Positions 15,001 to 21,000 of a stretch of 51,529 nt of DNA are shown here, one piece after another. This DNA comes from a virus (taxonomy: Duplodnaviria > Heunggongvirae > Uroviricota > Caudoviricetes), in IMG/VR virus record IMGVR_UViG_2617270963_000008, one strand, 5' to 3'. The position numbers were made by a program. Position 1 is the first letter of the stretch, and each line of letters starts with the position of its first letter.

Positions 15001-18000
15001 TGACCACTTCATGACGGCCTCGGCTAAGTATTGCGATATCCTGTTGCCCGACCTGATGCCAACAGAGCAAGAAGACCTTATCTCTCATGAATCTGCAGGG
15101 AATATGGGCTATGTGATCCTCGCCCAACCCGCAACCTCAGCAAAATTTGAACGCAAACCCATCTACTGGATGCTGAGTGAAGTCGCCAAACGCTTAGGAC
15201 CAGACGTTTATCAAACCTTTACTGAAGGTCGCAGTCAGCATGAATGGATCAAATATCTCCATGCGAAAACGAAGGAACGTAACCCTGAGATGCCCGACTA
15301 CGAGGAGATGAAAACGACCGGGATCTTTAAGAAAAAATGCCCGGAAGAACACTACGTCGCTTTCCGCGCATTCCGTGAAGATCCACAGGCAAACCCGTTG
15401 AAAACACCTTCGGGGAAAATCGAAATTTATTCTGAACGACTGGCGAAGATTGCAGATACCTGGGAATTGAAAAAAGATGAAATTATTCATCCCCTTCCTG
15501 CGTATACCCCAGGTTTTGATGGCTGGGACGATCCCCTGCGGAAAACCTATCCACTGCAGTTAACGGGCTTCCATTACAAAGCGCGTACCCACTCCAGCTA
15601 CGGCAATATTGATGTGTTACAGCAGGCCTGCCCACAAGAGGTGTGGATCAACCCCATTGATGCTCAGGCACGCGGTATCCGTCATGGCGATACCGTGCGG
15701 GTATTTAACAATAATGGAGAAATGCTGATTGCCGCAAAAGTGACTCCGCGTATTCTGCCTGGCGTTACCGCCATCGGGCAAGGTGCGTGGCTTAAAGCGG
15801 ATATGTTTGGTGACCGGGTCGATCACGGCGGCAGTATCAATATTCTGACCTCTCACCGCCCTTCACCGCTGGCAAAGGGAAACCCGTCGCACAGCAATCT
15901 TGTCCAGATCGAAAAGGTTTAAGGAGTAGCCCATGACCACACAATATGGATTTTTTATCGATTCCAGCCGCTGTACTGGCTGTAAAACCTGCGAACTGGC
16001 GTGCAAAGATTTTAAAGTTGGTTACGTATCGTTTAAAATCAATTAGATAGCCCGTCATTTCTGCGCTCACACGTCCCAACATTGAAAAACATGCAAAGCT
16101 TTGTAAGCCGGTGCAAAGCTTTGTGTGTCTCACTTTTGTCCCAATACCAATCCGAATCCACCCTTTGTCATCATTGAGAAATGGCAAGGAAGAAAAGGAA
16201 GAAAAGGAAGAAAAGGATGTTACTGCACGATTTGACAAATCCGCCAGAGCTATCGCATACTGACCGCACTACAACGTCAGCGGTCAACCGCACCCGATAG
16301 CTTTGCGGCTTTTTTATGCCTGTTTACAGGTATCGCCATATCAATGGCGGGTCGAGAGAGCCTAATACAATACCCTTTCGGGAAATACGCTCCGCCGTCT
16401 GACGCGGTAGTTGAAGCCCGCCCCCCCACTAAGGTGGCAGTCAATACTAAAACGTCAGGAGTCATAATTATGACTAATCAACTCATTCCCGTTTTCGATG
16501 GAACCATCAACAACGAACCAGTTTTACTTTGCAATGCTCGCAATCTGCACGCTTTTCTTGGTATTGGTAAAATGTTTGCTCACTGGATCAAGGACAGGCT
16601 GGGTGAATATGGATTCGTTGAAAATCAAGATTTTGTGATTGCTTGCCAAAATTGGCAAGCAAAAGGTAGAGGCGGTCACAACCGCAAGGAATACCACCTC
16701 ACCCTCGACACAGCCAAAGAGCTTGCGATGGTTGAACGTAACGAAAAAGGTCGCCAGATCCGCCGTTACTTCATCGAGTGCGAAAAGAAACTTCGCAACA
16801 TTCAGCCAGTACAAGCAGAACCACAGCCGCAATTCACAGCCGAGGAAATCATCCTCCTTTGCTACATGCAGCTCTGGATGGAAAAAGCCCAGGACATCAG
16901 CAAACACCTGTATCCCATTATGAAAGAGCTGAACTCCTCATACACGAACAAGCTGTATGACATTGCGTTTGAGACCATCTACATGGTGACGAAGAACAGA
17001 GACGCGCTACTAAGGGAGGTAACACATCTCGACATGTCAAGTTCCGTTATCCAGCGGGCCATGCCAATGCTGAAAAGTCTGCGGGCAAGACAATTTGAAT
17101 TCTGAAACCAAAGGAGCTTCGGCTCCTTTTTTCATGCCTGAAGGAAAGGAAAATGGCAGATATCATCGACAATGCCGCTGAAATCGAAGAATTGCAGCGC
17201 AATCTCTCCCTGCAAAAATACAAATCCGATAGTAATGCCCCATCTGCTACTCATTGTTGCGAGTGTGGCGATCCGATAGATGAGCGGCGACGCCTGGCTG
17301 TTCGTGGATGCCGAGCTTGCGCCAGTTGCCAGCAGGATATTGAACTTATCAACAAACAGAGAGGTGTGAAGTGAACATCAACACCACGATAACGATCGAT
17401 ACAGCCCTGAACACCGGCCTGGCGCTCCTTGGTTATTTCTACATCATGTTCTGCAGCGGACGATGGCTGTCACTGTTGTTCATGAAAAAATGGAATAAAC
17501 GCCGTAAGCAGGAGCAACGCCAGAAGGCAATGGATGCATTTTTCGAAGCCTTCGGGATTGACAGCATGGAACCAGGGGATCCAGCTCGCGCAATCAGCAG
17601 AGGGGGCGTAGTAATCCTTGTATATCGGAGTGAAGAGAAAAATGACGATCACAAAACAACGTGTAGAAAAAATCATATATCGCCATGAAATGGGACTGAA
17701 CAGCGATGTCACTGCCGAAGAGGTTTATGACCTGGCTGTACTGGCGCTGAATTTATCAAATATCGCAAACCTGAAGCGATACGAGCTTGATATGGATGGT
17801 TGCGACTCGTGCGGTCAGGATTGTGGCGCAGATATGACTGAAGATCCTGATGGTGATTATGTCCTGTTTGATGACGTGGTTAAGTTGTTTGAGCTTGATA
17901 CATTCGAAAGCCCAGCAAAGGAGGCAACCAGTGAGCAAGATTGATTATCAAAAGCTTCGTGAAATCGCTGAAAAAACAAAAATTGCTGGTGAAGCACCTG

Positions 18001-21000
18001 TAATGCCTTTCGATCAGCGAATTAATGCGCTTAACGATTTTATGAAGCACTTTTCGCCAGATATCGCGCTGGCATTGTTGGATGAGATCAACGCATTAGA
18101 GGAAACGCGTATCAACGATGTTTGCCGTATTGCGGAACTAACAAAACAACTGGAGTTGGCAAAATCAAAACTCAACGAGCAGCGTGAGTATTACGAGGGC
18201 GTTATCTCGGATGGAAGTAAGCGCATAGCAGAGTTAGAAAGTGATTCTCAGGCACAAAAGTTAGTTGAAGCAATCATTGTTGCGATAGAAAACGAACAGG
18301 AACGTCTTTTTGATGAAGATTACCTAATGGATTCGAAAGAATGCATTGACGTAATTCGTGAAGAAGTAAAGCGATGGAATGATTCCCGCGCCGCTGGCAT
18401 TCGCATCAAAGGAGAGTGAGATGACCACATCGCATTCTGCAATTACCCAGAAAAAAGCCTTCCACATACTCGAACGATTAGAGGCGCTTGCTACGGAGGA
18501 GGAGATATCCCCGGAGAAACTGGTTGAGTTCAGCCGTGTGATATTGCGTCGCAAGAACGATATGGAGCGGCTGACATCTGGCGCTCCATCCTTATCAGTC
18601 AGGCGAACACTTTGTTGCAGCTTCTGCAACAAATCCCAGTACGCCGTCAAAAAGTTAATTGCTGGGAACGCCGTTTTCATCTGCGACGAGTGTGTGGATG
18701 TGTGCAACAGAATTATCCGGGGAGAGAAAGAGGGATCAGCATGAAATTTTCCAAATTTTCTGAGTTGGTGAATCGTATTTTGTCCAACAACCACAGCCAT
18801 CGTCGCGATATGGATGTAACGATCGTTGTTCATTCGCCTGGTCGCATCGGTTCAACACCATCAGTTGAGGTTCAGTCAATTCAGGCGGGTTTTGATTGGG
18901 ATGCCGGGAAAGTGATGATTTTTCCAGCACAGCCACTGACCACGCTAACACCGGAGCAGGTTGCTGATATCACTGATAGTGTGCGCAAAGGTCAGTCTTG
19001 GCACGCGTATCAGGAATACAAGAAGCATAAAGAGCAGTTGGAAAAATTGTCGATGGAGTTGGAAGCCGCTAAACAGCGGGAAAAAGATCTGTTTATGGAA
19101 AATGTTCGACTTAAGTCAGGTATAGCCGGTCTGATACACCTCGGTATTCGATATGCGGATGTTGAGGTCATGAAAATTGCTGGAGATGCCCAGCTTTCTA
19201 CTCCATGCACTGACAGCATCATAAACAGCATTGCAGCAGGCATTTTCACCAAAGAGGGGGCAGCACGATGAGAACACTAGAGGTTCGCGCTGAAGACGTA
19301 ATCCCTGGTGATGTGCTCATAACATCTAAAGGTCAACAATGTGCGGTTAAATCTTTTTGGATGGAAAATGACAAAGTGACTCTGTTCGGTACGGATGGTT
19401 CCGAAACTGATTATGACTACGACGAATTGCTTGTTATTGAGAGAGCTGCCTAATGACCACCTTTACCAAAGAACAGTTAATCTCCCATGCACGCGAAAGC
19501 GTTAGTTATCTGGAAAACTTGAAAGGACGTGTTAGCAAAGAAGGTGCGGACTGCAAAGTTGTTATTGAGATGGTTGCACGAGATCTAAAACTGGCACGGA
19601 TTGCGCTGGCATCGCTGGAAGCAGATCCAGTTAAACGAGTTAACTCAGATCAGATGCGCCGAGTCTGCTTAGAAGCTAATCGCCATTTAGATAAATATGA
19701 CGCGATGGCGAAAGAGGTAAATAAGTTGCTTGGACGCATCGCCCCGCCAGCGCCGGTAGTGCCGGAAGAAGCAACTCCGGAAAACGTAGAAATGCTCTCT
19801 GGCTATGTTTCCACGTACAAATTAACCGATAGCGAGCGCGATATTGCTGCCGAAATATGGAACGCCTGCCGCGCCGCCATGCTTCAGTCCGGAAACTTTC
19901 GGGAAAATAAAGATTCGTCAACCAATAATTTTCGGAAAATCCCGGAAGCGTCAACCAGCTCTCCGGTAACTCCGGATGGTTGGATAAGCTGTAGTGATCG
20001 AATGCCAGAAATGGGAGAGCGACAATACTATGTGTTAGCAGCTGACTTTAAAAACAACTACCCACCAAGCATCCCCAACACTCAGGTCGGCGTATATGGC
20101 GACTGGTTTAATGATGGCAATCCCACTTGGGATGACGGTGATGGCGAAGACCTGCATCTCAAAGAAGTAACCCACTGGATGCCGCTACCAGAACCGCCGA
20201 AGGAGGTACGCCAATGACCTAGCCTGAAGCATTTGCAATTGTAGTGGCTGCCATTTCGATCGCACTGATTGTTTTTGCGATTTGCCGCTGGGGGTAAAAT
20301 AGTTCACCTGCATGGAGATTTGATGCCGGGGAATTGTGGGGGAGCATTCAAACCTCTCCCCTTCCCGGTTAAAGACTCCATTGCTTTGCGGTCAGAGAGA
20401 TACATCAGCTTCATCAGCTTAATGAAACGCATAGATCCGCCATGCTTTTTCAGCAAATACGCTGCCATTTGCGCAACTTTTTCTTCATTAAACATAAATC
20501 GGCTCTCTGTCTCACATGAAATACTCTTTCTGACTATATGTTAATAGCTCCGGTTATTACAGGTTAATGTGTGTTTATTTCTTAATCAGCCCCGCACTTC
20601 CGTACGGGGCCATTTCTGTTAATCCACTCCCACTTTTTTGTTGTACTCGCGGTTAAACCGATCCACGGCAACCTTCATATCCCGCTCTACCGATTTCACC
20701 ATCGCCGCCTGCTGCGCCAGACTGAGAGAACTGTCGGCATAAATGGCATCGCGCTGTTTGCGCAAATCCTTCAGTCTCTTCCGGGTATCCTGCATAAGCC
20801 CGTTCATCAACAATTTTCCGTTGTTCTCGTCAATGAACGCCGTTCTTTCTGCACCGGTCAGACTCTTCAGCTCTGCGTGATACTGCGCAACCTCTGTCAT
20901 CCGGTCGTACATCTTCTGCTGGTCTGCATACGGCATCACCTCACCCGAAATTTTCCCCAGGAAGGGCACCTGCTGTTCCGGTATATCAATACCATTCAGC

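Follow-up and report, generated by a model that had tools for sequence, protein, structure and literature searches.

A P22-type attachment-site arm and a candidate c4-like leader RNA of the sRNA-Xcc1 type ahead of an antirepressor-led operon in a 933W-group prophage

The IMG/VR virus record IMGVR_UViG_2617270963_000008, whose whole stretch of 51,529 nucleotides is called the window here, contains the junction between Escherichia coli DNA and a prophage of the 933W group (Sepvirinae), inserted in ynfG and closest among sequenced phages to the Shigella phages POCJ13 and 75/02 Stx (~90% identity over 25 kb). Next to the junction lies an accessory operon of nine plus-strand genes headed by the antirepressor gene ant. 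We propose, with a probability of about 0.65, that the DNA beside the junction is an arm of a P22-type attachment site and that the operon behind it is led by an antirepressor under RNA control resembling that of phage P1 immI, exerted by a small RNA (sRNA) of the sRNA-Xcc1 type. An earlier, sequence-only reading had described a leader of ~450 bp, in agreement with the spacing between the junction and the ATG of ant (16470), had taken two palindromes in it for operators of a dimeric repressor, and had remarked that no repressor gene was obvious in the operon. The remark holds for proteins, but the leader carries a candidate c4-like antisense RNA, and the palindromes belong to the integration module.

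Along the plus strand, the leader starts with a sigma-70-type promoter candidate at 16232-16261 (TTGACA, an 18-nt spacer and CATACT), the best promoter match of the region (10/12). Its hexamers are identical in 933W, F039 and POCJ13, its spacer is nearly so (one substitution in 933W), and in an alignment of the window leader with that of P1 it takes the position of P1c4. A hairpin of GACCGC and GCGGTC at 16262-16285 holds in its loop a segment here called box 1 (16268-16286 when delimited as a repeat), the counterpart of a1b1 of P1. It is followed at 16288-16315 by a terminator-like hairpin (CCGCA...TGCGG, then T6) that is conserved in P1 immI, in Vibrio phage VHML and in Aggregatibacter S1249. 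The candidate c4-like RNA, 85 nt long, occupies 16346-16430, and downstream of it box 2 (16446-16464), which nearly repeats box 1 and is the counterpart of a2b2 of P1, covers the Shine-Dalgarno sequence AGGAG of ant (16457-16461). The variable region of the RNA, made up of the hairpin-2 loop and the single strand that joins on behind it (~16393-16415), is complementary to both boxes; its duplex with box 1 is calculated at -23.9 kcal/mol, a value equalled in 9 of 1000 shuffles. The same leader stands ahead of antirepressor genes in 933W (L0142), F039, Aggregatibacter S1249 and VHML.

The RNA matches the Rfam sRNA-Xcc1 model (RF02221) structurally over its full length (model positions 1-87 of 87, E = 1.8e-8). 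The outer stem around hairpin 1 and hairpin 2 are both present, as is the conserved hairpin-1 motif AAUANAANACCC...GGGRAAUA (16369-16392), and the score of 51.5 bits falls 1.5 bits short of the gathering score of 53. Close relatives exceed that threshold, which is passed by 14 of 20 sampled loci, among them the Shiga toxin (Stx) 2 phage F039, whose leader RNA scores 65.4 bits and is annotated as sRNA-Xcc1. What differs between the phages is the loop of hairpin 2, which reads CGUCAG in the window, CUUCAAAG in F039, AGACUAG in S1249, UCAACAAG in VHML and CAAAUAAG in 933W, and in each case boxes 1 and 2 change to match it.

This co-variation extends through the family. A motif scan of viral contigs returned 117 distinct instances, 101 of them usable, in which the duplex between the variable region and the ribosome-binding site downstream averages -17.7 kcal/mol for cognate pairs against -10.7 kcal/mol for non-cognate ones (Mann-Whitney p = 1.8e-40, n = 101). 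In the same family set the preference of the variable region for its own upstream region, that is box 1, is likewise pronounced (p = 2e-29), the two boxes resemble each other (p = 8e-34), and the Shine-Dalgarno window lies under the duplex in 96 of the 101 instances. Terminator-like hairpins are found upstream of 57 of 100 family members. The downstream proteins (97) fall most commonly into six antirepressor-type N-terminal families, namely P22_AR_N (21), Bro-N (16), Phage_pRha (14), KilA-N (14), AntA (11) and ORF6N (5). Since the RNA is complementary to its own ribosome-binding site across 101 instances and mostly antirepressor genes follow it, the repressor that seemed to be missing from the operon is probably an RNA. 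The FORC_069 prophage and POCJ13 each carry two tandem modules of sRNA-Xcc1 plus ant with different recognition loops (stretch positions 3446 and 3976, and 328 and 860), and these modules prefer their own ribosome-binding sites (-14.5 versus -11.5 and -19.8 versus -8.6 kcal/mol). It may also be that in such tandem arrangements the conserved RNA serves as a recombination point for the exchange of ant genes.

The layout is that of immI of P1 and P7: a promoter, an upstream copy of the target, a structured RNA of ~80 nt, a downstream target over a ribosome-binding site and an antirepressor gene. The P1 record gives the order as promoters P2c4/P1c4, a1, b1, c4 RNA (77 nt), a2, b2, icd and ant, and c4 is cut from the leader by RNase P. 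Beyond the order of parts, the flanks can be aligned, with invariant blocks GCGG.CAACCGCA...TTGCGGYTTTTT in the segment from a1b1 to the terminator (GCGG.CAACCGCA..TTGCGG and a U-run) and ATGGYGGG in the 5' strand of the RNA outer stem (AUGGYGGG ... CCYGCC). The outer stem of the window RNA with its 3' GCC-N-CC tail resembles that of c4. In P1 the b' segment, which forms the loop of hairpin 2, pairs beside the Shine-Dalgarno sequence, the a' segment, which forms the joining strand, pairs further upstream, and the window has the same topology. The two RNAs differ in hairpin 1, which in the window is longer and bears the conserved AAUANAANACCC/GGGRAAUA motif; the Rfam C4 model therefore fails on it. 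P1 itself scores 68.8 bits with the C4 model and 51 bits with the c4-a1b1 model, so the window RNA is best described as a structural variant that would work like c4 and not as a member of RF01695. Other differences are that the window RNA is predicted to target ant directly, without an icd-like open reading frame (ORF), that the leader has no C1-type operator, and that the module heads a nine-gene accessory operon beside the attachment site of a lambdoid podovirus. The control predicted for this leader would be a variant of a known mechanism.

Window positions 16279-16322 are 95.5% identical over 44 nt to positions 2501-2544 of the stretch from VHML, a Vibrio myovirus, and this block covers the terminator-like hairpin (CCGCACCCGATAGC..TGCGGCTTTTTT). 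The loop sequence CCGAUA is also present in P1, a degree of conservation beyond what a plain terminator would need.

A second antirepressor locus with comparable control is IsrK-orf45-anrP of the Salmonella prophage Gifsy-1, where one promoter yields both a short terminated RNA and, by read-through of the terminator, an antirepressor mRNA that is inactive until the short RNA activates its translation in trans (PMC4825925). The Rfam isrK model gives a partial match to the a1b1-plus-terminator segment of P1, which is homologous to window positions 16262-16315. The same model misses the window, IsrK pairs with orf45 sequences, and no RNA of the c4 or Xcc1 type lies in between.

Taken together, these parallels suggest how the leader could operate. 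The RNA would pair with box 2, in trans after c4-like processing or in cis, and so block translation of ant; through polarity this block would probably lower the expression of the eight downstream genes as well. Box 1, carried either on a short transcript ending at the putative terminator or on the read-through leader, would compete for the same RNA surface and thereby relieve the block, as for IsrK in Gifsy-1.

An alternative is that the element is a purely cis-acting leader from which no diffusible RNA is made, pairing of the variable region with box 2 being the off state and pairing with box 1 the on state. Three complementary segments do lie on one transcript within 200 nt, and the covariation would fit pairing in cis equally well. 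P1 c4, however, has the same layout and acts in trans, as established by P1 genetics and given in the annotation of the P1 record. The IsrK leader does switch between two conformers (PMC4825925), but the founding sRNA-Xcc1 was seen on Northern blots as a discrete 88-nt RNA (PMC2996969), and in S1249 one copy stands by itself ahead of a second module that is complete. We therefore regard a strictly cis-acting leader as unlikely and retain the c4-like antisense RNA as the preferred reading. The S1249 copy (stretch positions 2307-2393) scores 68.6 bits and lies upstream of the promoter of the second module, which in turn precedes the antirepressor gene.

Several points count against a c4-like RNA acting on the window's ant. 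The duplex with box 2 is modest, at -14.5 kcal/mol, and is equalled in 104 of 1000 mononucleotide shuffles; being weak by itself, it leaves the case to rest on the family-wide pattern. The score with RF02221 is just below threshold, and the Rfam models for C4 (RF01695), c4-a1b1 (RF03163) and isrK have no match in 16200-16600 at E <= 10. The window leader lacks the icd-like upstream ORF of P1. Finally, the covariation would be compatible with cis pairing and trans action alike.

The sRNA-Xcc1 family was first described in a Xanthomonas campestris integron cassette, and the literature we searched treats it as a trans-acting sRNA with an unassigned or virulence-related role. Nowhere in that literature was sRNA-Xcc1 tied to c4 or to the ribosome-binding sites of antirepressor genes, although an earlier account may exist elsewhere; the nearest remark places it upstream of an ORF6N gene in APSE phages. 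We consider the chances about even that sRNA-Xcc1 is another widespread "immunity RNA" of the c4 type, the second structural class of its kind, in which the reprogrammable surface of ~20 nt of each copy fits the ribosome-binding site of the next antirepressor gene, whatever its protein family (AntA, Bro-N, KilA-N, Rha, P22_AR_N or ORF6N), and that in Stx phages of the 933W group it is this RNA and not a protein that governs the switching-on of the attachment-site-proximal antirepressor, and through it prophage induction and the cross-talk of prophages that share a host. It is antirepressors that determine whether a lambdoid prophage remains silent, and in Stx phages induction brings toxin production with it. 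Should the attachment-site-proximal ant of 933W-type phages indeed be held by a c4-like RNA whose specificity resides in a short variable loop, that loop would offer a concrete and mutable handle on induction, and also on cross-talk among the many prophages within one Shiga toxin-producing E. coli (STEC) strain. An orphan family with members in enterobacterial phages and in those of Vibrio, Aggregatibacter, Hamiltonella and others would gain a testable function, and annotators could label the leader and predict its target from sequence alone.

Control at the promoter, with any RNA effect secondary, was also considered. LexA controls some Gifsy antirepressors and C1 the c4 promoter of P1, the latter through the operator Oc4, so LexA or the prophage CI could in principle act here. 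Control by LexA was rejected, as there is no LexA box in 16000-16480. As for CI, the promoter hexamers are identical in phages from different Sepvirinae genera, which, judging from the promoter sequences themselves, would argue against an immunity-specific operator. Promoter control of either kind thus appears improbable, and the leader RNA remains our favoured regulator. Two findings from phage phi24B were set aside. The microRNA-size RNA 24B_1 lies in the lom region, and the ant that has been proposed as its target is another one, situated downstream of R (PMC4426718). The phi24B ant of Fogg et al. (PMC3064807) was discounted since its placement before qut in the pR operon makes it uninformative for the window ant. 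Just upstream of the promoter candidate, 18-44 bp from the -35 box, are three tandem copies of GGAAGAAAA on the plus strand (16188-16214), of which POCJ13 has one; lying beside the -35 box of ant, this A-rich tract of variable copy number could alter promoter strength.

The DNA ahead of this promoter, from 16012 to ~16230, is the P arm of an attachment site of the P22/DLP12 type. The 110 bp around the repeats described below are homologous to the P arms of P22 (84%), of epsilon34, of DLP12 attR in K-12 (~76%, between envY and ompT) and of an O157 island, and in all four the homologous arm comes directly after the core. The matching P22 region lies between attP and gtrA, and the next genes in both P22 and epsilon34 are gtrABC. 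The integrase gene, int, falls outside the window; in the relative POCJ13, Int shares 71% identity and Xis 72% identity with its P22 counterpart. The phages 933W, VT2-Sakai, Stx2-86 and F039, which have other integrases, have sequence in common with the window from ~16226-16232 on but not over the preceding 210 bp. The core differs from that of P22 and DLP12, which is the 3' end of a tRNA gene: here it is TTTAAAG (16012-16018) inside ynfG, a 7-bp overlap that the window junction has in common with the far junction in strain FORC_069, which carries a prophage of the same type.

Within the arm are two plus-strand copies of GTCCCA, one proximal to the core (16073-16078), in a block that is invariant between the window, DLP12, P22 and the O157 island, and one distal to it (16138-16143). 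On the other arm the final codons of int hold another two, so that a composite attP contains four copies in one orientation within +/-125 bp of the core. Because they are clustered near the core in a single orientation, against a background of 0.17 per kb, we take GTCCCA as the likely Int arm-type site. The 13-bp repeats described next were tried in that role and rejected, there being no copy with three or fewer mismatches near int on the P' arm of POCJ13; GTCCCA fits better. In 933W the corresponding arm (stretch positions 127-219) has three 31-bp tandem units with six TGCCCCAA(A/T) repeats, which are probably arm-type sites for its own Int.

Between the two GTCCCA copies lie the palindromes of the sequence-only reading. 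The 10-bp perfect palindrome CAAAGCTTTG is present at 16095-16104 and at 16115-16124, 20 bp apart as had been stated, and each copy is enclosed in a 13-mer, TGCAAAGCTTTGT, that is repeated exactly and in the same orientation (16092-16104 and 16112-16124), with a start-to-start spacing of 20 bp. A single 10-bp palindrome is expected about 0.4 times by chance in 450 bp, whereas an exact 13-mer repeated within 40 bp is expected only ~3e-4 times. As the repeat is far beyond chance and a lone palindrome is not, we regard this as one duplicated element and not as two independent palindromes. The two repeats fold together into a 17-bp hairpin on the plus strand (16089-16128; -23.1 kcal/mol, z = -4.7). 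A loose pattern scan of viral contigs gave 15 variants of it (the strict flank pattern found 3 loci in genome contigs), in which 93.7% of the cells pair. The changes are compensatory in two pairs (UA<->CG and CG<->UA) and go through G-U only in another four. The observed covariation score was reached by 1 of 500 shuffles, and the G-U pairs are compatible with the plus-strand RNA only. DLP12-type copies no longer have a palindrome in either 10-mer, and their 13-mers agree at 9 of 13 positions, yet the hairpin between the copies is kept.

The idea that the palindromes are operators through which a dimeric repressor controls the nine-gene operon is attractive in that two identical and perfect sites have their centres two helical turns apart and in that an antirepressor gene must stay silent in the lysogen. 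The sites end at 16124, however, and the -35 box of the only strong promoter candidate begins at 16232, which places them 108-140 bp upstream of that box instead of adjoining the promoter. The sequence-only reading had itself counted the absence of the palindromes from otherwise identical prophages against the idea, and 933W has the promoter, the leader and ant (L0142) but zero copies of the motif, as is the case also in F039 and Stx2-86. Conversely, the homologous segment adjoins unrelated cargo, gtrABC in P22 and epsilon34 and ompT in DLP12, and so follows the type of integrase and not the operon, homology to phages with other integrases starting only behind it. The loss of the single palindromes from DLP12-type copies, with pairing between the copies preserved, argues further against protein sites of this kind. 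Comparison with relatives thus refutes the operator interpretation, and we give it very little credence. More generally, where symmetric repeats are found beside a prophage junction, a component of the attachment site is a likelier reading than an operator.

Most likely, the hairpin at 16089-16128 is an int-distal RNA element, a putative terminator/retroregulator or insulator comparable to tI/sib of lambda, which lies downstream of int across attP. We read it in this way because of its position in P22 and epsilon34, in whose circular genomes it stands 80-130 nt downstream of int on the sense strand, because the epsilon34 record labels this spot [quoted passage not shown], and because 933W, whose integrase and arm repeats are of another kind, has a strong hairpin of its own, unrelated in sequence, at the same position (-27.9 kcal/mol, z = -6.6). 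In its homologous P arm, hairpin, GTCCCA repeats and P22-type Int and Xis the module is like P22 attP and DLP12 attR, and in presenting a stable hairpin on the int-sense strand 3' of int, beyond the core, it is like lambda. It differs from tI/sib in that the hairpin lies between candidate arm sites, not beyond the arm, and in its weak U-run.

In the circular phage the hairpin would lie on the sense strand ~125-140 nt 3' of int across attP and, as RNA, could end or destabilise int transcripts in the manner of tI/sib. In the prophage it comes to lie between ynfEF and the operon, and in the lysogen it may insulate the antirepressor operon from read-through of ynfF. The host genes ynfE and ynfF are two paralogous reductase genes of 808 amino acids (11012-13438 and 13496-15922) that read towards the prophage, so that host transcription would enter it on the sense strand of the operon.

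The principal competitor to this RNA element is a pair of DNA sites for the P22-type Xis or another accessory protein of recombination, with the RNA hairpin as a by-product or a second role. The tandem repeats here are arranged like X1 and X2 of lambda: they are 13-bp units spaced 20 bp start to start, at a distance of 74-106 bp from the core, on the arm that does not adjoin int, with a candidate Int arm site on either side. A P22-type Xis is encoded in the prophage family and could bind the repeats, and the segment travels with the int-xis module. P22 Xis is said to protect one major site in the P arm. On the other side, DLP12-type repeats agree at only 9 of 13 positions and yet stay complementary through compensatory and G-U changes, the unrelated attachment module of 933W also has a hairpin there, and the label chosen by the epsilon34 annotators is that of a terminator. 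We hold the Xis sites to be possible but doubtful, and continue to prefer the int-distal RNA hairpin. Apart from the available Xis, some features of the hairpin tell against a terminator: its U-run is poor, as CUCAC (CTCAC in the DNA) intervenes between the stem and UUUU, and a terminator scan lists the site through its lenient window only; the covariation amounts to few independent events; and mirrored changes in the two arms could also be explained by a symmetric or repeated protein site. Whether terminator or Xis site, the element is part of the integration module.

Two further observations concern these hairpins. That of 933W has 22-bp arms, follows the 31-bp units (stretch positions 239-285) and lies 45 bp upstream of the ant promoter. 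In DLP12-type copies the loop region of the hairpin reads TTGC-N6-TTGC (DLP12 attR, stretch positions ~2520-2545; epsilon34, stretch positions 1858-1881), which is the recognition pattern of lambda CII and P22 C1 and is annotated in epsilon34 as a putative CII site; the window has a degenerate version, TTGT-N6-GTGC.

The junction comparison and the ORF map bear out the sequence-only reading in its placing of an accessory operon against the prophage junction and convergent with the late genes. On the host side, ynfF is followed by the start of ynfG, whose truncated 5' end on the plus strand (15933-16018, annotated in relatives as a partial 4Fe-4S protein) marks the attL-side junction and is cut after codon ~28 at 16018. 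The junction arm occurs in about 82 of 5426 complete E. coli genomes, and the whole operon in its window form in only 2 of them. The strand of the operon also carries int, xis, exo, bet, gam and kil in relatives, with int and xis at the far end of the prophage, and the circular order is therefore pL ... xis, int, attP, operon. The analogy that had been drawn with the b region of lambda is thus fair, as the circular phage puts the operon directly 3' of int across attP, in the right half of that region; in lambda ea47-ea59 lie directly downstream of int across attP. As in the b region, or the "exo-xis region" of lambdoid and Stx phages, non-essential early-left genes (Ea22-like and TraR-like among others) are found 3' of int across the attachment site, and the accessory genes converge on the late operon. 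The difference is that the operon here has a predicted promoter of its own and putative RNA-based control, and hence need not depend on pL in the lysogen. Like genes (traR and Xcc1-ant) are found in the Oslovirus F039 within the early-left operon, upstream of xis/int, and gene content at the position of the operon is mosaic among related prophages.

The nine ORFs run on the plus strand from 16470 to 20217 and are joined by overlaps of 4 nt or 1 nt or by short gaps, the widest (47 bp) lying between ant and traR. The tight coupling that had been noted is thus evident, and Pfam agrees with the families that had been named. The first gene, ant (16470-17105), encodes an AntA N-terminal domain with P22_AR_C and matches phrog_377 (anti-repressor Ant) at E = 8e-101. 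There follow a TraR/DksA-type zinc finger protein (zf-dskA_traR; 17153-17374), a DUF4752 protein (17371-17688), a conserved phage protein of phrog_3126 (17642-17944), an Ead/Ea22-like protein (Ead_Ea22; 17850-18419), a ClpX-type C4 zinc-finger protein (zf-C4_ClpX; 18421-18744), conserved phage proteins of phrog_6026/368 (18741-19271) and of phrog_15283 (61 amino acids; 19268-19453), and a DUF551 protein as the final gene (19453-20217). Pfam has no match for three of the nine (17642-17944, 18741-19271 and 19268-19453), and each of the nine has a match among the PHROG phage families. An Rfam hit to the Salmonella sRNA STnc40 at 17067-17132, which extends over the stop codon of ant and the 47-bp spacing ahead of traR, is weak (23.7 bits, E = 0.83) and probably due to chance.

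The operon faces the late genes of the minus strand, of which the first met is also the last of that strand, a gene for a 2783-amino-acid polyvalent protein with LPD5/LPD38 domains (20619-28970). Between the two, at 20304-20495 on the minus strand, is a conserved ORF of 63 amino acids, known in relatives as WP_000481379.1. It matches positions 1-62 of the 91-position profile of phrog_3658 and may thus be truncated.

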